Shown: one piece after another, positions 12,897-24,819 of the stretch | How the letters are laid out: every line of letters begins with the position of its first letter | Position numbering within the stretch: the first letter of the stretch is position 1 | Sequence record: MN655998.1 | DNA from: Escherichia phage E26 | Direction: 5' to 3' (one strand) | Length of the DNA: 64,000 nt | Notes under the pieces: model-generated | What the model was told of the DNA's origin: nothing | Database searches by the model: none | What the model saw: only the letters and a program-made list of their open reading frames with translations | Program-made: the position numbers and the translations under genes

Positions 12897-14948
12897 TTAC
12901 ATTTTAAATTTATCTGGCATTGCGTCTACAGATACCAGATCAGCGATAAGCTGACGTAGAGTTGCCTTATCTGCTTTCTTACGTTCGGTTTTAGCTTCGC
13001 TAATGAAGCTGGAGAAAGACAGGTCAGAAGCAGGTTTAACAACACCTTCACGGATGAATGCATCACCGTCCGCGATCATCTCGCCAGATTCTTGTAATGC
13101 TGCCAGTTCATTTTTGTTCATAATATGTGCCTCAATGTAATAAGTTTCTTGTGAATCCGTCGATGCCGTAGCACGAGTTACCGTATCAAAGGATAACACA
13201 ACACCGCGAGGAAGTAAAATCTCGCATTCTTTGTAAGCAAATGCTTTGTTACCTACTGGCAAGACAGGGATGTTTTCCGCGCCAGCAATGGAGAAAGCAA
13301 CATTAGCGCCACCTTCACCGCGAGAGCCAGCCATAGAATCAACACCAGCAACGGCACTAGCCACGTTTGCATTCCAGCCGCCAAAAATGTTAGGTGCAAG
13401 GGAAGTGCTCACATAGTTTTTAAAGTAAAACGCTTTTTGCTTACGTGCAGTTTCCCACATTTGCGACCGGAAGTCCATACCACGATACAGAATAGTACCC
13501 GGATCAAGTTTAACTCCATAGTTGGAGAAGGCATTATCCAGTGCATCGCACATCTTGACCAATTCTTCTGGATCTGCGATGCCTTCAAACTCTTCCAGCT
13601 TACGATCAGTTAGGAAGTTGTTCATATTGATGTATGCTGCATCGGCATATTCGCTCAATACAAAACCTTCCGCGCCAGGCAGATCAAGATCAATATCTGC
13701 CATCATTTCACCCATGTTGCTAGCAATTGCTTCAAACATACCGGAAGCAACATTACGTAGGGCATCGGTTTTAATCTGTGTGATGTGACTACGCAGCATT
13801 TCAGCTTTTACATCTGCTGGCATAGACTGGTCTACTCGATCCATTGCCAGGGCGGTGATCTTGTTTTCGAATACTTCCTCGCTCATGATTTCTTTTAAGC
13901 GTTTGATTGATGCTGCGATAACTTCCGCAGACAACGGATCATATTGATCCTGAACTTTTACCAGTTCGCTTACTGCGTATTTTGCATCGGCTTCGCTTTC
14001 AAAAATAGTACGCATGAAACCATAGCGAGTGATAATATCACTTGTCCAGTCATTCAGAGAACGGGCGGTTGAACGTTCTAAGGCTTGACGATCAATCAGA
14101 GTATTAAACTGTTTCTTAGGTTCGGCTTCGGTGATATCTTCTTCTGGTTTAAGATTAATTTTTTCTGGATGATTCACGTAGTCGCTGTTATATGTCGCTT
14201 GAGTTTTCAGCATTTCTTCTTTAGTCAAACGAGATTTAGCCGCTACGCGTTGTTCTGCTTCCGCGTTTCGTTCTTCTTCTGACACAAGACTAGCCGCATA
14301 TGCCTCATCTTTAGTCAGAGATTCACCAGTAGCCTTAGATACCCAGCGATCACCTAAATCACTTTCTACTTTAGTGAACAAGGATTCATCAAGTTTAATC
14401 CCTTTAATCTTATCAATCGCCATCCCGCGACGCTTGACAACAACTAAAGCGATCTTTTTGCTGGTCATTACTTCCTGCTGGAATACTTCAAACTTCGGTG
14501 TACGACGCACCAAACGCTCTATAACGCGCTTAACCAGTTCGGTCTTACCTTTCATGCGGGATACGTTAAAACGGAACATAACAGCGTCTAATTGCGCTTT
14601 ACGGGCTGTTTCCATAACCACATCAAAAGCACTTGCCATAACTGCAATCGGGTTATCGCCTAGACCATTTTTAAGCTGTACAATACGACCGCTTTTGTTC
14701 ATTTCGCACAGTACAACATGTGCGGTTTTGTCACCCATACGAATGATTTTAGGTGTTTTGTTGGTGAAGTTACAAAGACGGACAATCACATCTTTATCGC
14801 GTGTCTGTACTGCAAAAAGCTGTTTAGGATTCTGCTTAGGCTTTAAGCACTGTACCGGAGCAATACTGCCAAAGTTTTCTTCCTCTTCCGTCAACAGCCA
14901 TTTCTCGAAAGATTCAATCATTAGATCGTCGATTTCTAAGTTAAACAT
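12897..14948 (-). CDS. alt: Alt ADP-ribosyltransferase (head-packaged, T4 Alt-like)
   Basis: 683 aa; C-terminal LYRGMDF, STS, ECEILLPRG ART motifs; size matches T4 Alt. Confidence 0.8.
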   Translation of the reverse strand: MFNLEIDDLMIESFEKWLLTEEEENFGSIAPVQCLKPKQNPKQLFAVQTRDKDVIVRLCNFTNKTPKIIRMGDKTAHVVLCEMNKSGRIVQLKNGLGDNPIAVMASAFDVVMETARKAQLDAVMFRFNVSRMKGKTELVKRVIERLVRRTPKFEVFQQEVMTSKKIALVVVKRRGMAIDKIKGIKLDESLFTKVESDLGDRWVSKATGESLTKDEAYAASLVSEEERNAEAEQRVAAKSRLTKEEMLKTQATYNSDYVNHPEKINLKPEEDITEAEPKKQFNTLIDRQALERSTARSLNDWTSDIITRYGFMRTIFESEADAKYAVSELVKVQDQYDPLSAEVIAASIKRLKEIMSEEVFENKITALAMDRVDQSMPADVKAEMLRSHITQIKTDALRNVASGMFEAIASNMGEMMADIDLDLPGAEGFVLSEYADAAYINMNNFLTDRKLEEFEGIADPEELVKMCDALDNAFSNYGVKLDPGTILYRGMDFRSQMWETARKQKAFYFKNYVSTSLAPNIFGGWNANVASAVAGVDSMAGSRGEGGANVAFSIAGAENIPVLPVGNKAFAYKECEILLPRGVVLSFDTVTRATASTDSQETYYIEAHIMNKNELAALQESGEMIADGDAFIREGVVKPASDLSFSSFISEAKTERKKADKATLRQLIADLVSVDAMPDKFKM

Positions 14949-17363: not shown

Positions 17364-17403
17364 TGTTTGATTCTCCTAAGTGGTATCTCGTCTTGATGGT
17401 TGT

Positions 17404-17432
17404 ATTGTAGGGGAGTTATCCTCCCCTGTCAA
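17404..17432 (-). promoter_or_regulatory. PeSL early promoter (TTGACA - GGGGAGGATAACTCCCC - TACAAT)
   Basis: Hexamers with 17-nt palindromic spacer. Confidence 0.6.
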
Positions 17433-17446
17433 CACTTTTTATAAAA

Positions 17447-17614
17447 TTATTTGTTAATTTCCGGTGCGTTGCTTGGATAGTAACCTTCTTTAACTCCGAG
17501 GTATTTCGCAACCATCCCTACAATCTTCTGTGCTACTACAATGTCAAATTTCAGATAATCTTCACCGTAGGTTTCAATGATATATGCTTCACATGCTGCT
17601 TTAGTCTCGAACAT
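17447..17614 (-). CDS. hypothetical 55-aa protein, paralog copy 1 (MFETKAACEAY...YYPSNAPEINK)
   Basis: Hand-translated; near-identical paralog at 20716..20883. Confidence 0.45.
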   Translation of the reverse strand: MFETKAACEAYIIETYGEDYLKFDIVVAQKIVGMVAKYLGVKEGYYPSNAPEINK

Positions 17615-17647
17615 TTTGATTCTCCTATTTCGTTTCGGTATGTGTGT

Positions 17648-17676
17648 ATTATAGGGGATCTCCCGATCCCCGTCAA
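17648..17676 (-). promoter_or_regulatory. PeSL early promoter (TTGACG - GGGATCGGGAGATCCCC - TATAAT)
   Basis: Near-identical to element at 20918..20947. Confidence 0.6.
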
Positions 17677-17691
17677 CAACTTTTTTTAAAA

Positions 17692-17973: not shown

Positions 17974-18006
17974 TTTTGATTCTCCAGTTCGTTTCGGTAT
18001 GGGTGT

Positions 18007-18035
18007 ATTATGCTATGTTCTTACTTTGGTGTCAA
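18007..18035 (-). promoter_or_regulatory. early promoter (TTGACA-17-CATAAT), no strong palindrome
   Basis: Hexamer match and spacing. Confidence 0.5.
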
Positions 18036-18043
18036 CAACTTTT

Positions 18044-18313
18044 TTAGATATTTTCAGAAATAAATTTTAAAACTTGACGTAAATGTTTCTCATCTTTGAT
18101 AGTCGCCGGAAGTTCTTCTTTTACTTCCTGTGCAAGATAGATATTTCCGTTCCAAGTGAAAGATCCGTCTTCGTTTACGCGATAGCTGAACATCCACTCG
18201 CAATCATTTTCGATTTCATATACACACAGAAGAGTGTAATCTTCAAAGCTATTGAGTTCAAGGTCGAAGCCGTGACGTTTTGCAAAGTTGGTAGTGGTTT
18301 TAGTCAGTGCCAT
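18044..18313 (-). CDS. hypothetical early protein (89 aa)
   Basis: ORF track; RBS. Confidence 0.5.
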   Translation of the reverse strand: MALTKTTTNFAKRHGFDLELNSFEDYTLLCVYEIENDCEWMFSYRVNEDGSFTWNGNIYLAQEVKEELPATIKDEKHLRQVLKFISENI

Positions 18314-18353
18314 TGTTTGATTCTCCTAAGTGGTATCTCGTTTCGATGTGTGT

Positions 18354-18382
18354 ATTATGCTATAGGCGTGTTCTGGTGTCAA
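18354..18382 (-). promoter_or_regulatory. early promoter (TTGACA-17-CATAAT)
   Basis: Hexamer match and spacing. Confidence 0.5.
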
Positions 18383-18412
18383 TTCTTTTTTTAAAATTTT
18401 ATGCAATAAAAA

Positions 18413-18432
18413 AGCCGACGCTAAGGTCGGCT
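18413..18432 (-). terminator. intrinsic terminator AGCCGACG-ctaa-GGTCGGCT + T-run (minus)
   Basis: Stem plus TTTTTT on minus strand downstream of 18440 gene. Confidence 0.55.
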
Positions 18433-18439
18433 AATAAAA

Positions 18440-18748
18440 TCATTTAGACAAATAATCATTCTGTGCAATCCGGTCAGCATGTTCCGGCGTTACGTCAATT
18501 GCAATCACTTTAACGCGTGCTTTCTTGCGACCTGGGTTTTCTCGTAGCCAGTGCGTGTGACCGTACAAATTTTTATACTTTGATGCTTCTTCGAAGGTAC
18601 GGATCGGACCTGGGTAATCAGCGTAAAGGATCTCTAGATCTTCGGTGATGTAAAAATATACATCGTAATTGCTGTTCTCTAGCTTAAGCAGAGACTTTCG
18701 GAACATTGGGAGATTTTCGCGGGTAAATTCAAAGATATTATCTTTCAT
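18440..18748 (-). CDS. HxHW-family paralog 1 (start adjusted to MKDNIFEF)
   Basis: YFYITEDL ... GHTHWL ... VIAIDVTPEHAD; RBS GAGGAT. Confidence 0.55.
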   Translation of the reverse strand: MKDNIFEFTRENLPMFRKSLLKLENSNYDVYFYITEDLEILYADYPGPIRTFEEASKYKNLYGHTHWLRENPGRKKARVKVIAIDVTPEHADRIAQNDYLSK

Positions 18749-18776
18749 AGTATTATCCTCAATAGTTGGATGAAAA

Positions 18777-18796
18777 GGGGGGCTTAACGCCCCCAT
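18777..18796 (-). terminator. hairpin GGGGGGC-ttaa-CGCCCCC + T-run (minus)
   Basis: Duplicate of hairpin at 14994..15010. Confidence 0.45.
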
Positions 18797-18799
18797 ATA

Positions 18800-19087
18800 T
18801 TAAAACAGTCCTTCCTGTACACCGTAATAGAGTTCGTCGCTGATAATTTCATTAATGCGACGGTGTGCATATTCCTGATTTGCGAAGTTGTCAGCAAGTT
18901 CTACTTTAGTTTCTCCGTCATGAGTCCATTTAGTGATAACTTTACCATCTGCAAATTTGAAGTTGAACTCTTTAGCTACCGCATCGCGTACCAGACGTGC
19001 AAACTTATTGTTGCGGATTGCATTGTCGGTTTCGTGTGCAGCGTGAGCGAATTTGTTAACTTTCAGAGTGATAGTAATGTATGCCAT
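18800..19087 (-). CDS. hypothetical protein (95 aa), KEFN-motif paralog a
   Basis: RDAVAKEFNFKFADG shared with 22100..22411 product (RKALAKEFNTKIHSVTG). Confidence 0.5.
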   Translation of the reverse strand: MAYITITLKVNKFAHAAHETDNAIRNNKFARLVRDAVAKEFNFKFADGKVITKWTHDGETKVELADNFANQEYAHRRINEIISDELYYGVQEGLF

Positions 19088-19133
19088 AATTTGATTCTCC
19101 TAGTTAGAAAGTGTATCTCGTTTCGATGGGTGT

Positions 19134-19162
19134 ATTATGCTATACACCCGACCTTATGTCAA
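19134..19162 (-). promoter_or_regulatory. PeSL early promoter (TTGACA ... CATAAT, palindrome GGGTGTAT/ATACACCC)
   Basis: Same palindrome as 15265 element. Confidence 0.6.
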
Positions 19163-19168
19163 CACTTT

Positions 19169-19447
19169 TTATAAAATAATTTTTTGATATTTTTCTATGA
19201 TGTTCGTGTAAGTCACATCAACCGCTAGCACCGTTGCTTCGAATCCACCGTTTAGCCAATGGCTATGGTCATGATCGTGAAAGAAACCAAGACCAGTACG
19301 AAGACCTTCTTTATATTCTGCGCGTACATTTAGATCATCATCGATAAACAGATAAAACCATGAATTTTTACTAGGATTGATGATACAACCTTTCAGATTA
19401 GGGAGAATATCACGACTAAGAATAAACTTATCACCTACTTTGAACAT
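19169..19447 (-). CDS. HxHW-family paralog 2 (start at MFKVGDKF)
   Basis: FYLFIDDDL ... HDHSHWL ... VLAVDV. Confidence 0.55.
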   Translation of the reverse strand: MFKVGDKFILSRDILPNLKGCIINPSKNSWFYLFIDDDLNVRAEYKEGLRTGLGFFHDHDHSHWLNGGFEATVLAVDVTYTNIIEKYQKIIL

Positions 19448-19461
19448 AATATTTTCCTCAC

Positions 19462-19770
19462 TTATAAAGTTTGACCGTTGTTTTTCGCGTAATGCTGAAT
19501 GCGTGCTTGATCTGCTTCCGCTGGTGATAGATTCCATGCAACCACTACAACTTCTGACGCATCGTCATCCGTTTTTGATACCCAATGATTATGATTCATA
19601 CAATTGTTTGCTATCGCGTGAGCAAATGATTTCATCACTGGAGATGTATAATCATAGTAACGGATTTTCAGATTTTCATCAACATACAAGTAGATCGTAT
19701 AAGGTTTATATTCAGTAACCAGTAACAGACAGTTACGCAATTCTGGGAAAATCTTTTTAGTTAATTTCAT
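19462..19770 (-). CDS. HxHW-family paralog 3 (start at MKLTKKIF)
   Basis: IYLYVDENL ... NHNHWV ... VVVAWNLSPAEAD. Confidence 0.5.
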   Translation of the reverse strand: MKLTKKIFPELRNCLLLVTEYKPYTIYLYVDENLKIRYYDYTSPVMKSFAHAIANNCMNHNHWVSKTDDDASEVVVVAWNLSPAEADQARIQHYAKNNGQTL

Positions 19771-19771
19771 T

Positions 19772-19981
19772 TTATAATCCTCGGTCGCGGCTATAGTACA
19801 CGGTACGCCATACAATTTCATGTTTCGTGTCGCTCCAGCACACGATCTCATTTACTCTTAAATCTTTGTTATCAACAAAAGATGAACATTGTGACGTTTC
19901 TTTCATCATTTTATCTGCTGTTTTCTCATCAAATACAGCACAGATTTCTTTATACACTCGATAATCTTTAAACTTGCTCAT
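19772..19981 (-). CDS. hypothetical protein, MSKFKDY tandem paralog a
   Basis: MSKFKDYRVYKE...FDEKTADKMMKETSQCSSF; paralog immediately upstream. Confidence 0.5.
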   Translation of the reverse strand: MSKFKDYRVYKEICAVFDEKTADKMMKETSQCSSFVDNKDLRVNEIVCWSDTKHEIVWRTVYYSRDRGL

Positions 19982-19983
19982 AA

Positions 19984-20193
19984 TTAACACCAATCAAGAG
20001 TTTTTGAAAACACATCTATCCATTGTTGAGTATATGCGGTTTCTTTCCATGATACAATACCGGTAGAATAATGGTTTTTGTTTCCAGAAAAGGACGGGCA
20101 TTTTGATGCATCTTCCATCATCTTTTCGGCGAACTCTGGTTCGTATACTCGCAAGATCTGTTGATATGCTTTGTAGTCTTTAAATTTGCTCAT
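19984..20193 (-). CDS. hypothetical protein, MSKFKDY tandem paralog b
   Basis: MSKFKDYKAYQQ...FAEKMMEDASKCPSF. Confidence 0.5.
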   Translation of the reverse strand: MSKFKDYKAYQQILRVYEPEFAEKMMEDASKCPSFSGNKNHYSTGIVSWKETAYTQQWIDVFSKTLDWC

Positions 20194-20458
20194 AATCGTT
20201 AACTACCTTATCAGCTTCTTTTATTGTTTTTACATCAACTGCGATAACCCGTAAAGGTTCGTCGTGGTTCCACCAATGATCGTGAATATCAGCTTGTGAT
20301 TTATCACCAAAGGAATCACGAATATCATTTTTACATTTATAGCTAATGTGACCGTCATAGTCAACATAAAGGTAATTATCGAAAATCGGCGTTTTTAAGA
20401 TCATACCGAAAAATCTTTCTTTGTGTGTCTTATCCAGCGTTGCAGTAATTCGCATCAT
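20180..20458 (-). CDS. HxHW-family paralog 4
   Basis: NYLYVDYDGHISY ... IHDHWW ... VIAVDVKTIKEAD. Confidence 0.55.
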   Translation of the reverse strand: MMRITATLDKTHKERFFGMILKTPIFDNYLYVDYDGHISYKCKNDIRDSFGDKSQADIHDHWWNHDEPLRVIAVDVKTIKEADKVVNDYEQI

Positions 20459-20471
20459 AATATATTCCTCT

Positions 20472-20651
20472 TAGAAAGGGATGGTCATTTCTTGAGCTTG
20501 TACATTCTCGTTAGGATTAAACTTCATCCAACCGATATTGTCTACCAGCATATGTACATTTTTATCATACCCTACGTGAGTAGTCAACACTAAATGTGCT
20601 TTACCTTCAACGATGATTTCCATGTACTTCTGAACTTCGATAGCTTTCATT
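20472..20651 (-). CDS. hypothetical small protein (59 aa)
   Basis: Hand-translated MKAIEVQKYMEIIVEGKAHLV...; RBS GGAGAAT. Confidence 0.4.
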
Positions 20652-20678
20652 TTGATTCTCCGTTTGTTGTCTTGATGG

Positions 20679-20712
20679 GAGTATCTTACTACTCCCTTTA
20701 ATCATTGTCAAC
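20679..20712 (-). promoter_or_regulatory. PeSL early promoter (TTGACA, stem GGGAGTA/TACTCCC with -10 TAAGAT in loop)
   Basis: Same stem variant recurs at 31271, 58091, 58856. Confidence 0.5.
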
Positions 20713-20715
20713 TAT

Positions 20716-20883
20716 TATTTGTTAATTTCCGGTGCGTTGCTTGGATAGTAACCTTCTTTAACACCCAGATATTTTGCAACCATTCCGGTGATCTTCTGTG
20801 CTACTACGATATCGAATTTCAGGTAGTCTTCACCGTGGGTTGCTACAATGTATGCTTCGCATTCTGCTTTAGTCTGGAACATT
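20716..20883 (-). CDS. hypothetical 55-aa protein, paralog copy 2 (MFQTKAECEAY...YYPSNAPEINK)
   Basis: Hand-translated; ~85% aa identity to 17447..17614 product. Confidence 0.45.
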
Positions 20884-20917
20884 TTTGATTCTCCTATATC
20901 TCGTTGGTATGTGTGTA

Positions 20918-20947
20918 TTATAGGGGATCTCCCGATCCCCTGTCAAC
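20918..20947 (-). promoter_or_regulatory. PeSL early promoter (TTGACA - GGGGATCGGGAGATCCCC - TATAAT)
   Basis: Duplicate of 17648 element. Confidence 0.6.
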
Positions 20948-20954
20948 AACTTTT

Positions 20955-21263
20955 TTATTCTTCATCTTCATTTTTATCTTTATATGCGTACTTCATAAAT
21001 TTGTCTGCTACTTTGTCCGCGTTTTCAGGTTCTACGTCTGACGCTAGGACAACAGCTAGTTCGGTTTTGTCGTTTCCATCATACCAATGATTATGAGTGT
21101 CGTTTTCTTTGATATAAAACGAATCATTTGGAGTTGTGCGACAATATACGTCTAAATTCCCATCGATATAAAAGATCCAATCCGAATACAAAATGATTGT
21201 TTTAGCCAGATTTTTATTGTCTCTTACAAAAGGTTCCGCGACAAATAGCTTAGTTTGTTCCAT
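20955..21263 (-). CDS. HxHW-family paralog 5 (start at MEQTKLF)
   Basis: IFYIDGNLDVY ... THNHWY ... LAVVLASDVEPENAD. Confidence 0.55.
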   Translation of the reverse strand: MEQTKLFVAEPFVRDNKNLAKTIILYSDWIFYIDGNLDVYCRTTPNDSFYIKENDTHNHWYDGNDKTELAVVLASDVEPENADKVADKFMKYAYKDKNEDEE

Positions 21264-21279
21264 AGTAATTTCCTCAAAA

Positions 21280-21471
21280 TTATACAGCTTCGTAAACTTC
21301 CCAATGTCCAACACCAGCACGCTTAACGAAAAGGTTTTCTTTGATGTTATTCATAAACGTCTGGATGGATTTAATGCGGTTGGAAGGTTTCCAGTCTTCG
21401 TTAGCATTGCGGCGATACATTATAACATTACCAGATCGCTTATATTCAGCAACCATTTTAAGACCACACAT
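21280..21471 (-). CDS. hypothetical protein (63 aa)
   Basis: ORF track; RBS GAGGAT 8 nt upstream. Confidence 0.4.
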   Translation of the reverse strand: MCGLKMVAEYKRSGNVIMYRRNANEDWKPSNRIKSIQTFMNNIKENLFVKRAGVGHWEVYEAV

Positions 21472-21527: not shown

Positions 21528-21830
21528 TTACGCAAAATGGCGTGTCAATGCTTCTTTTGCTGTTCCGCTAAGATTCTCGATCTCTCCTGGCATAACATCA
21601 ACCGCCAGAACTTCTACAACATCCTCTGATCCTAACCAGTGAGTATGACCTTTGTAGAACTTGATATCCCATTTAACGCTATCGCTAGCCCACCACACAT
21701 CACCGTCGATAAAGTTGATGTAAAGCACACTACGACACATTGAATTAATTACTTTCAATACTGCGCCTTTCATCTCTTCCACGGTATGGTCTTCCATTTT
21801 GAAGACCTCACCTACCTGAACTTTTGCCAT
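21528..21830 (-). CDS. HxHW-family paralog 6
   Basis: LYINFIDGDVWW ... GHTHWL ... VLAVDVMPGE. Confidence 0.55.
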   Translation of the reverse strand: MAKVQVGEVFKMEDHTVEEMKGAVLKVINSMCRSVLYINFIDGDVWWASDSVKWDIKFYKGHTHWLGSEDVVEVLAVDVMPGEIENLSGTAKEALTRHFA

Positions 21831-22027: not shown

Positions 22028-22061
22028 AATTGATTCTCCTAGTTCGTTTCGGTATGTGTGT

Positions 22062-22091
22062 ATTATAGGGGAGTTTAGCCTCCCCTGTCAA
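22062..22091 (-). promoter_or_regulatory. PeSL early promoter (TTGACA - GGGGAGGCTAAACTCCCC - TATAAT)
   Basis: Hexamers plus palindromic spacer. Confidence 0.6.
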
Positions 22092-22099
22092 CAACTTTT

Positions 22100-22411: not shown

Positions 22412-22456
22412 TTTTGATTCTCCGTTTAAGAAAGTGTGTTTCGTTTTGATGTGTGT

Positions 22457-22485
22457 AGTATAGGGGATCGGTGATCCCCTGTCAA
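22457..22485 (-). promoter_or_regulatory. PeSL early promoter (TTGACA - GGGGATCACCGATCCCC - TATACT)
   Basis: Hexamers plus palindromic spacer. Confidence 0.6.
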
Positions 22486-22498
22486 CAACTTTTTTGAA

Positions 22499-22850: not shown

Positions 22851-23324
22851 TTACTCCTTATTTTCGCGCTCGTACTTTTCGAAATAAAATTCTACTGGCT
22901 GGTCATTAATTGACAGCAAGCCAAAGCGTTTAGCCGCTCGCAATCCCATATTGCGCTGAATGTACTTCTGGAAGTTCTCGCGTATACACTTACGCCAGTA
23001 TTCTAAGCCCATACAGCTTTTATAAAGATTGCATTGCACACACGCCGGATTCATGTTATCAAGTATATCATGTTCCGGTTTATGCATTCCTACAACCTTA
23101 TACTTCCACGATCCATCATCATTACGGGCAATTCGTCCATTTTCATCATAGACTACCTTTGAGCGTCGCAATACTGGTTTGATGTGGTCTGCGTGCCAGC
23201 GATCCCCTAGTTCCTCGCCACAATAGGCACAACGTCCACCATATTTCATTTTCAGGATCTGGCGTTGCTCTTTCTTTGACAATTTTTTAGGTTTAGGGGC
23301 TTTTGCCCCTTCATTATCACACAT
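22851..23324 (-). CDS. HNH endonuclease
   Basis: CAYCGEEL ... WHADHIKP ... N ... CVQCN: HNH motif with two CxxC pairs; directly downstream of ligase gene. Confidence 0.6.
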   Translation of the reverse strand: MCDNEGAKAPKPKKLSKKEQRQILKMKYGGRCAYCGEELGDRWHADHIKPVLRRSKVVYDENGRIARNDDGSWKYKVVGMHKPEHDILDNMNPACVQCNLYKSCMGLEYWRKCIRENFQKYIQRNMGLRAAKRFGLLSINDQPVEFYFEKYERENKE

Positions 23325-24819
23325 CGAATACCTCTTTTACTGTATTTGCAGTGGTCTTGTCGTAGCGAATACGTTTGATGATTGGGAGAAATAAAGAGAA
23401 CTCCGGTTCATCTTCTTTACGTGATTTGCTGCGGATATACCCGTTGCATGTCATCTCAATGACTTTTCCAATCAGGTTATGACGATCAGCCCATAACATT
23501 TCTCGGTCGAGTTCATTTCTACGATCGAACGGAATTACACGTTCAATACCATCATCACCTTTTTCGGTTGTAGTGTCGGTTAATCCAGATCCGGTGTTAG
23601 TCATCATTCGTCCGCACGCACTACGGACAGTAAAACCGCCTACCTTATTGGGGTCTTTACTATGCGGATATACATCAACAATTTCCGCGTCGAAGTCAAT
23701 CACTTCTTTAAATTTAACCTGATCTTTACTACGGCGATCTTCAAATACACCATGTAAATTTTTAAGGATAATACCTTCTAAGCCCATGTTTACATAGCGA
23801 TGATATACTTCGCGAGCTTCGTCTATATTGTTAACTACAGTGTTTTCGATTATCTGAACACGAGGATCGTTAAGTTCTTCAACAATCTGTTTTAGTTCTT
23901 CGAATCGATCTTTATATTGCTTCGTTGCTTTCTCGTTTCCGTAATACACATCACGGTCGATAACATCCCAGACAGTGTAAACAATACATTGGGCTTCTTC
24001 TTTTGGAATAGTTCCTTTCAGTGATTTGTTGAGGATACCATTTCCGGTCTGACGATCTGCAACAACGGATTCTTTTACTGCTTCCGCTACTGGAGTTAAT
24101 GGCATTTCCTCTTCTTCAAATATCCATGACAGAGTACCATCATAAACGCTCTCAACGAAGTTCTGCGCTGGTGTTTGTGAAAGGGTAGGCATATATACCA
24201 ATTCGCCATCTAGAACAATTCCACGGCCTCGTAGACGCTCTAAAACCGCAAACAAATCATCAAGCCCTTGATAGGTATTACCTGAGCGGGTATAGATTGC
24301 TAATGTTTCCCCGTCAATATCAGCCATACCACGAGCGCCATCGCTTTTAAGTTGTGCATACGCCGGATATTTGATATTGGCAATAGTCTTATCAGAACAT
24401 GACGATGCAAGGTGGCACGGTTGCTGAGGAATCAGTTTCTTCCATACCTTGTTTGCAGTGGTAGCGGAACAGCCGCATTCCAGATCACGATTCAGGACCA
24501 TCATCGCAACTTTAGCATCATCCTCTGACAAGCAAGTCAGAGTATCGGTAACTAGCTGTAATGCTGCATTACCAGTTACTTGACGCGTGGCAAGTTTATT
24601 TTTAAAGACCTGTAATGCACCGGATAAAGACAATACAGACGAATAGCGAGATGGTTTATCGTATTTCTTTACGCCAAACGTAACCTGTTTGCAATATGCC
24701 AGATAAAAGCATTCTTTCAGCGTTTCATTGCTCGCGGATTCTTTCAGGATCTTTTCTTTCAGCGATGTTTTGTCGGTTGCTGCAAGCTGATTAATGATAT
24801 TAAGAATTGACATTTTCAC
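23317..24819 (-). CDS. 30: ATP-dependent DNA ligase gp30
   Basis: 500 aa; adenylation KxDG motif AQLKSDGAR; size and synteny with T4 gp30. Confidence 0.85.
   Translation of the reverse strand: MKMSILNIINQLAATDKTSLKEKILKESASNETLKECFYLAYCKQVTFGVKKYDKPSRYSSVLSLSGALQVFKNKLATRQVTGNAALQLVTDTLTCLSEDDAKVAMMVLNRDLECGCSATTANKVWKKLIPQQPCHLASSCSDKTIANIKYPAYAQLKSDGARGMADIDGETLAIYTRSGNTYQGLDDLFAVLERLRGRGIVLDGELVYMPTLSQTPAQNFVESVYDGTLSWIFEEEEMPLTPVAEAVKESVVADRQTGNGILNKSLKGTIPKEEAQCIVYTVWDVIDRDVYYGNEKATKQYKDRFEELKQIVEELNDPRVQIIENTVVNNIDEAREVYHRYVNMGLEGIILKNLHGVFEDRRSKDQVKFKEVIDFDAEIVDVYPHSKDPNKVGGFTVRSACGRMMTNTGSGLTDTTTEKGDDGIERVIPFDRRNELDREMLWADRHNLIGKVIEMTCNGYIRSKSRKEDEPEFSLFLPIIKRIRYDKTTANTVKEVFDV

Follow-up and report, generated by a model that had tools for sequence, protein, structure and literature searches.

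Escherichia phage E26 carries two adjacent minus-strand genes whose 69-residue products both begin MSKFKDY; they lie in the 64,000-nucleotide stretch of record MN655998.1 analysed here (the window), and we refer to them as copy A and copy B. Our comparisons show that the two are anciently diverged paralogs, that A is held under strong purifying selection, and that B has been replaced as an allele between close relatives—we are highly confident in this account of the anatomy and evolution of the locus. The explanation that we favour overall, in which A and B are old early-ORFan paralogs, the first conserved and the second swappable, that act as independent binders of host proteins, we place a little short of an even chance.

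As hypothetical proteins, A and B are already known from RB49, phi1, and about 50 other phages, and the plasticity of the hyperplastic region in which they lie has been published. What is new is the extension of the family past Krischvirus, to early-region genes of Autographiviridae from several genera; a fold that is predicted with confidence and for which no relative has been solved; a natural series of B alleles (B1, B2, mosaics, and absence) in otherwise 95-100% identical genomes; and gene-precise exchange via conserved coding 5' ends, rather than via the promoter-early stem-loops (PeSLs) of the region.

The MSKFKDY pair and its operon

A megablast search with positions 18400-21400 matched 58 phage records at 92-96% identity, all of the genus Krischvirus, the RB49-like T4-type coliphages of the Straboviridae. 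The MSKFKDY region is a series of small minus-strand genes located 3' of gene 30, which encodes DNA ligase, and of an HNH endonuclease gene, and it is syntenic with RB49 ORFs 190-213. The pair falls within the hyperplastic region, between DNA ligase/HNH (24819..22851) and a large ORF (14948..12897); the equivalent region of an uncultured RB49-related T4-type contig (L020) spans from the ligase to the Alt ADP-ribosyltransferase. The HNH endonuclease itself (157 aa, 23324..22851, minus strand) lies directly 3' of the ligase with an 8-nt overlap; RB49 has the same layout (RB49p212), and in L020 a 166-aa homologue is found 3' of the ligase. The features of the pair and its operon, in the direction of transcription, are:

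20651..20714, minus strand: PeSL-type early promoter, the nearest upstream of the pair (10/12 in the promoter scan), TTGACA ... GGGAGT-AGTAAGAT-ACTCCC, with the stem-loop between the -35 and -10 elements
20471..20650, minus strand: first cistron of the operon, 59 aa, followed by a 12-nt gap (GAGGAATATATT, which contains GAGG) and then HxHW-92
20180..20458, minus strand: upstream HxHW-family gene (HxHW-92), 92 aa, HDHWW, phrog_15972; overlaps copy A by 14 nt at the A start
20174..20196, minus strand: first copy of the 5' direct repeat, ATTATGAGCAAATTTAAAGACTA, which extends across the A start and matches 19984..19962 at 21/23 nt
19984..20193, minus strand: copy A, 69 aa, MSKFKDYKAY..., full sequence MSKFKDYKAYQQILRVYEPEFAEKMMEDASKCPSFSGNKNHYSTGIVSWKETAYTQQWIDVFSKTLDWC; orthologue of RB49 ORF202 and phi1 ORF202, phrog_8471
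19962..19984, minus strand: second copy of the 5' direct repeat, ATTATGAGCAAGTTTAAAGATTA, which extends across the B start and includes the conserved junction GGTGTTAATTATG
19772..19981, minus strand: copy B, 69 aa from its ATG, MSKFKDYRVY..., full sequence MSKFKDYRVYKEICAVFDEKTADKMMKETSQCSSFVDNKDLRVNEIVCWSDTKHEIVWRTVYYSRDRGL; allele class B1, orthologue of RB49 ORF201 and phi1 ORF201, phrog_8471
19462..19770, minus strand: downstream HxHW-family gene, 102 aa, HNHW, phrog_9345; its ATG lies 1 nt past the B stop
19169..19447, minus strand: HxHW-family gene further downstream, 92 aa, HSHW; it closes the operon and is preceded by an 11-nt gap with GAGG
19088..19168, minus strand: next PeSL, the downstream operon boundary, TTGACA-17-CATAAT plus stem-loop

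An earlier sequence-only reading of this DNA had described a tandem pair of paralogs, and on formal alignment the pair holds up: BLASTP gives 26/62 identities (42%) between A and B, gapless, at E 4e-18, a similarity far above chance. Both proteins match phrog_8471 over their full length (A at E 1.5e-36, residues 1-69; B at E 1.1e-32, residues 1-67), a PHROGs v4 family HMM that is listed with unknown function. A and B are direct orthologues of RB49p202/p201 and phi1p202/p201, which occupy the corresponding position and have the same HxHW genes on either side; E26 A is 88-99% identical to the RB49 and phi1 copies, and E26 B shares 97% of its residues with RB49 B and about 63% with phi1 B. The RB49 and phi1 entries read 'hypothetical protein'—both the paralogy and the allele structure are absent from the annotation.

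The same reading had the two genes overlapping and sharing a conserved cysteine, and neither claim survives. The TAA of A (19986..19984) is followed by TT and then by the ATG of B at 19981 (…TGG TGT TAA TT ATG…), which leaves a gap of 2 nt; the true overlap is that of A with HxHW-92. A TTG at 19993, from which B would overlap A, was considered as the B start and rejected for the ATG at 19981, since MSKFKDY is the start of A, of every MSK-type allele, and of the B-only variant L028. In RB49-type phages a 5-nt indel shifts the frame of A near its end, giving an 85-aa A that overlaps B. We also rejected an upstream in-frame extension of A, which came from a tblastn alignment with the distant family member P0015; a stop codon lies four codons 5' of the A ATG. 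As for the cysteine, Cys32 is Y in the phi1-type B (class B2), Q in the metagenomic B alleles P0006 and P0017, and R, V, I, T, S, or A in distant members; no Cys column of the family alignment, Cys32 included, is conserved.

Between the two PeSLs the cistrons run in the order 59-aa gene, HxHW-92, A, B, HxHW-102, and HxHW-92, spaced by a 12-nt gap, a 14-nt overlap, and gaps of 2, 1, and 11 nt. A and B are internal cistrons with no intergenic space of their own; no promoter and stem-loop cassette was found directly 5' of either, the nearest PeSLs being two genes upstream and two genes downstream. The 14-nt overlap between the end of HxHW-92 and the start of A implies that translation of A may be coupled to that of its upstream neighbour.

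The two PeSLs are copies of a repeated minus-strand intergenic cassette that consists of AAAAGTTGTTGACA, a G-rich/C-rich stem-loop, TATAAT, and then AGGAGAATCAAA; nine such sites score 10-12/12 against the sigma-70 hexamers in the promoter scan:

22498..22412, 22099..22028, 20954..20883, 20714..20651, 19168..19088, 18439..18314, 18043..17974, 17691..17615, and 17446..17364, minus strand: cassette copies (n=9) with the -35/stem-loop/-10 layout

These nine cassettes match the PeSLs reported for RB49 and phi1 by Arbiol et al. 2010, whose tested promoter and stem-loop terminator examples were active in lacZ reporters (PMC2839356); PeSLs were also proposed as mediators of modular shuffling (PMC2839356). 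From the promoter consensus matches in E26, taken with the published reporter assays on other PeSLs, we infer early transcription by the host RNA polymerase, and the six-gene block would then be expressed early, polycistronically, and with translational coupling. Rfam returned no credible RNA on either strand of 19000..21000, and no credible plus-strand ORF was found to compete for the DNA of the pair.

The placement of the pair inside an array of HxHW genes, also part of the earlier reading, is correct; the immediate neighbours carry HDHW and HNHW. At least six paralogs of this 92-102-aa family, with an invariant H-x-H-W, lie within 3.4 kb:

21830..21528, 21263..20955, 20458..20180, 19770..19462, 19447..19169, and 18748..18440, minus strand: HxHW paralogs, each with the H-x-H-W motif

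The paralogs fall into different PHROGs (15972 and 9345) with weak cross-matches, and the family occurs twice in L020. A functional linkage between HxHW and MSKFKDY proteins was considered on the basis of co-occurrence and is unsupported; an HMM of eight HxHW proteins found no member of that family in the podophage loci that carry MSKFKDY relatives, so we regard the adjacency as a feature of the hyperplastic region only.

Age and origin of the pair

The sequence-only reading had further called the duplication recent. Its interpretation stands as far as tandem paralogs inside an HxHW array are concerned; however, the recent date is refuted. The nucleotide identity between A and B is 51%, and their synonymous differences are saturated (pS 0.86). 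A tblastn search located the MSKFKDY family in 56 GenBank phage records, all Krischvirus, among which A is 90-100% identical, and both copies are present in 53 of the 56, a copy number that itself argues against a recent origin. Identity among A orthologues is 88-100%, as against 35-45% between A and any B; neighbour joining on 65 columns with 500 bootstraps gave an A clade with 100% support and a separate B clade with 93%. A and B are, then, anciently diverged paralogs. A recent tandem duplication would account for the identical first seven residues of the two proteins and for their near-identical 5' ends, but given the saturated synonymous sites and the two separate, genus-wide lineages we assign it next to no probability. 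A contrast pair of 55-aa paralogs gives an idea of how a recent duplication looks in the same genome.

These 55-aa genes, at 20882..20715 (MFQTKAECEAYIV...) and 17614..17447 (MFETKAACEAYII...) on the minus strand, are 86% identical in DNA and 89% identical in protein. Both are immediately preceded by PeSLs that are nearly identical—a cassette duplication much more recent than the MSKFKDY pair. Between the neighbouring 95-aa and 103-aa genes paralogy is not detectable.

The parsimonious origin of the pair is an old duplication in situ, on account of the adjacency of A and B and the MSKFKDY start that they uniquely share. Alternatively, a second and already divergent family member may have been inserted beside the first by modular shuffling, with no duplication in place. 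The similarity values are consistent with this route, since A is as similar to outgroups (45% to P0011 and 43% to P0013) as it is to B; the bootstrap support for grouping A with B is 30%, and gene-precise allele replacement is demonstrated at the B slot itself. On the other side, the point-estimate tree does group A with B, and the MSKFKDY N-terminus and 21/23 nt of the 5' end are common to A and B alone; however, gene conversion, which chimeric alleles such as P0006 suggest, could explain both of these shared features. We consider insertion unlikely, though it should be kept in mind, and retain the old in-situ duplication as the preferred origin.

Selection, allele exchange, and copy loss

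Among 14 distinct alleles of A the mean dN/dS is 0.067, and A is evidently the conserved copy, under strong purifying selection. The B slot is more varied. Of the 56 records, 31 carry B1 (the RB49 type), 22 carry B2 (the phi1 type), and 3 have no B; B1 and B2 proteins are 61-65% identical, with dN 0.27, dS ~1.5, and ω ~0.18. Metagenomic B alleles (P0006, P0009, P0016, and P0017) are in some cases mosaic—P0009 joins a B2 N-terminal half to a B1 C-terminal half, and P0006 starts like A—and at least six B allele types are found overall.

A sliding comparison of E26 with Phi1 (L013) shows 95-100% identity across 3.2 kb, save for two gene-sized, sharply bounded blocks. One of these covers the B body only (19953..19774, 53-73%), and 98% identity is regained exactly at the next gene start. 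The confinement of this block to the B body amid a 95-100% background, together with the genome-wide amino-acid identity of 95.8% published for RB49 versus phi1 (PMC2839356), argues that B has been replaced as an allele and has not merely diverged. The E26 locus is accordingly read as a mosaic, with a phi1-type 69-aa A, a phi1-type MSKFKDY start of B, and an RB49-type B body. The other divergent block is the HxHW-92 gene directly upstream of A (20493..20194, 62-78% nt); the two neighbouring single-gene allele swaps, of HxHW-92 and of B, have no PeSLs at their borders.

Either copy can also be missing. The records that lack B are those of JSE (two) and KMB43, in which an extra HxHW gene takes the place of B, and the GGTGTTAATTATG junction is found 5' of this replacement gene as well. 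In the contig L028 (MAVA01000018.1, 1353-1833) it is A that is absent, and HxHW-92 is directly followed by B2; the junction consists of the A upstream and 5' sequence, exactly ATTATGAGCAAATTTAAAGACTA, fused to the B2 body. Recombination across the 21/23-nt repeat at the A and B starts would produce this arrangement, and the near-identical 5' ends thus appear to act as a direct repeat that allows A to be deleted. Additionally, six contigs, which come from several samples, carry a frameshifted A (P0005) with B intact behind it (for example L022, 2501-2929). Copy number is 1-2, with A-only, B-only, and A-frameshifted genomes known; since both genes have been lost in nature, neither A nor B is indispensable, and any benefit that they bring is conditional. 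That one copy is kept and the other swapped or lost between relatives is usual for phage accessory genes.

The pattern can be set beside the PeSL-bounded ORFan cassettes described previously (PMC2839356; Comeau et al. 2014, PMC4122927), which belong to the same region (ORFs ~190-212 of RB49 and phi1) and are the same cassettes; presence/absence and replacement polymorphism between close relatives is common to both. Unlike those cassettes, the A/B pair sits inside a six-gene operon and is not flanked by PeSLs, and its replacement and deletion breakpoints fall at gene starts, in short conserved coding or junction sequences, rather than at PeSLs.

Copy loss also bears on the possibility that A and B form an obligate heterodimer, one subunit each, which would explain their adjacency and coupling. 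The 2-nt spacing within one operon and the presence of both copies in 53/56 records would fit such a complex; however, A-only phages (JSE and KMB43), the B-only contig L028, and A-frameshift variants exist, and relatives outside Krischvirus have a single copy. The near-invariant A is, moreover, paired with B alleles that are about 60% alike and 8 charge units apart, which is unexpected for a co-evolving interface. We therefore hold an obligate heterodimer to be very unlikely; the single-copy relatives, the genomes with A or B only, and an A that stays invariant beside very different B alleles support proteins that act independently.

The wider family, its predicted fold, and its possible function

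A word-indexed search of 5.8 billion proteins returned solely Krischvirus-type sequences. HMMER, run as a full profile search over 1.84 billion representatives and followed by a further profile search, gave 22 clusters, and a scan of IMG/VR and metagenome contigs added a few extra loci. All 21 of the 21 aligned family members match phrog_8471, and members from unrelated phage families retain 25-45% identity. L020 carries a single copy (P0012) in the same ligase-to-Alt region, flanked by homologues of the window genes at 19087..18800 and 18313..18044. In Autographiviridae podophages, single copies lie in the leftmost, early part of the genome: the family gene is at 3.8 kb of 44 kb in Enterobacter phage SDFMU_Pec (Koutsourovirus). 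In Aeromonas phage phiAS7 it is gp15, upstream of primase/helicase, and a further 13 records of Aeromonas podophages have it as well; in three Klebsiella podophages and in Yersinia phage fHe-Yen3-01 it lies 2.7-7 kb from the left genome end. All relatives outside Krischvirus are single-copy.

In metagenomic podophage contigs the family gene lies a few genes 5' of an S-AdoMet lyase and, in one contig, beside a pentapeptide-repeat protein. In two podophage contigs that are unrelated to each other a DUF7267 protein is encoded 3' of the family member, adjacent in L008 (8319-8534) and three genes off in L009 (2838-3017), and the S-AdoMet lyase follows within ~1-2 kb downstream in L008 and L010; these surroundings may represent a conserved early-gene neighbourhood.

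The conserved core of the family is [FW]-x-[DE]-[YW]-x-x-[YF] … A-x-x-M-M-x-D-A … S-F … I-V-x-W-x-[DE]-T-x-Y-x-x-x-W. With 21 sequences, AlphaFold2 models A as four helices (8-14, 19-30, 43-46, and 55-64) at pLDDT 93.7 and pTM 0.81, and we are confident in predicting a small, soluble, all-alpha, aromatic-rich fold with a core of ~62-70 aa. Structural matches are weak: all have Z <= 4.4, which is insignificant, and the resemblance to SAM/RST/HhH-type interaction modules reaches Z <= 4; among the nearest known systems are SAM/SHD2/RST-type small helical interaction domains (for example Sla1 SHD2 3idw, AF1502 5a1q, and RCD1-RST 5oao). Foldseek against BFVD matched solely uncharacterised family members (phiAS7 and fHe-Yen3-01).

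Searches for known families gave little else. A Pfam scan of A, B, and 21 relatives found nothing above the gathering threshold; the best NCBIfam hit (E 0.006) was far below the cutoffs; PADLOC had no match for A and a best E of 0.012 among all members; and a PDB sequence-profile search reached E 0.18 at best. No catalytic motif, signal peptide, transmembrane segment, or conserved Cys or His is evident in the sequences. We found nothing in the literature on the function of RB49 and phi1 ORF201/202, and the names Krischvirus, RB49, Bas46/47, Straboviridae, and Tevenvirinae are all absent from the HIDEN-SEQ preprint.

Could the two ORFs be spurious, or decaying hitch-hikers with no function? Loss of either gene, the frameshift of A in some contigs, and the lack of an assigned function would fit; against this stand the strong purifying selection (dN/dS 0.067 and 0.18), the persistence of the family at 25-45% identity across unrelated phage families, and the quality of the deep-alignment AlphaFold model (pLDDT 93.7). 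We find this explanation highly improbable.

A second possibility is that A and B are small nucleic-acid-binding regulators of phage or host DNA or RNA. Four distant members (P0015, P0022, P0023, and phiAS7 gp15, L019 4929-5204) have a conserved N-terminal extension of ~20 residues, a strongly basic tail with M[IL]KR[KN]RK[IL]NKQ, that hints at nucleic-acid or membrane association in those phages, and a K/R-rich tail is a better fit to nucleic-acid than to protein binding. The Krischvirus copies are without this tail, and family members vary in net charge from -7 to +7 (B alleles from -7 to +1), with A neutral and invariant; in addition, the structural matches are insignificant and domain scans detected no HTH or HhH sequence motif in A or B. 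A role in nucleic-acid binding seems to us quite unlikely.

We lean instead, tentatively and at clearly less than even confidence, towards a mechanism in which A and B bind host proteins or counter host defences. This proposal draws on the small, soluble, helical, and seemingly non-enzymatic domain, the placement in early regions of unrelated virulent phages that the host polymerase transcribes, the dispensability of both genes, and the swapping of alleles; this set of features agrees with T4-type and T7-type early accessory proteins whose known mode of action is to bind a host protein. Both proteins would be made right after infection from the host RNA polymerase, and would act independently as stoichiometric, non-enzymatic binders of host proteins in host takeover or counter-defence. 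The target of A would be a conserved one, and the alleles at the B slot would differ in specificity and be exchanged among co-circulating phages. No similarity to a characterised anti-defence or takeover protein was found. Precedents exist among other T4-type ORFans and variable-region genes: T4 gp55.2 is an inhibitor of topoisomerase I (PMC4396842), and RB43 057w is a J-domain protein that acts on DnaK (PMC3486835). A and B are likewise small, non-essential, variable-region products of T4-type phages; however, the MSKFKDY family has no sequence or structural similarity to gp55.2 or 057w, and the analogy is one of context only. With dN/dS between the B classes well below 1 there is no signature of positive selection, and the diversity of B could reflect the neutral cassette traffic that is usual for hyperplastic regions rather than an arms race.

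Taken further, and more doubtfully, phrog_8471 may be an unrecognised early counter-defence or takeover family of T4-type myophages and phiKMV-type podophages of Enterobacteria, Aeromonas, and Yersinia, with a compact helical fold that has no solved relative—A would be the 'generalist', and B (B1, B2, ... or empty) would be a 'specialist' slot that tracks variable host immunity. The B allele series, set in otherwise near-identical genomes, offers a ready-made experiment linking an accessory gene to host range or defence evasion. If a host target is found, A and B would be a compact case of paralog sub-specialisation in phage–host conflict.
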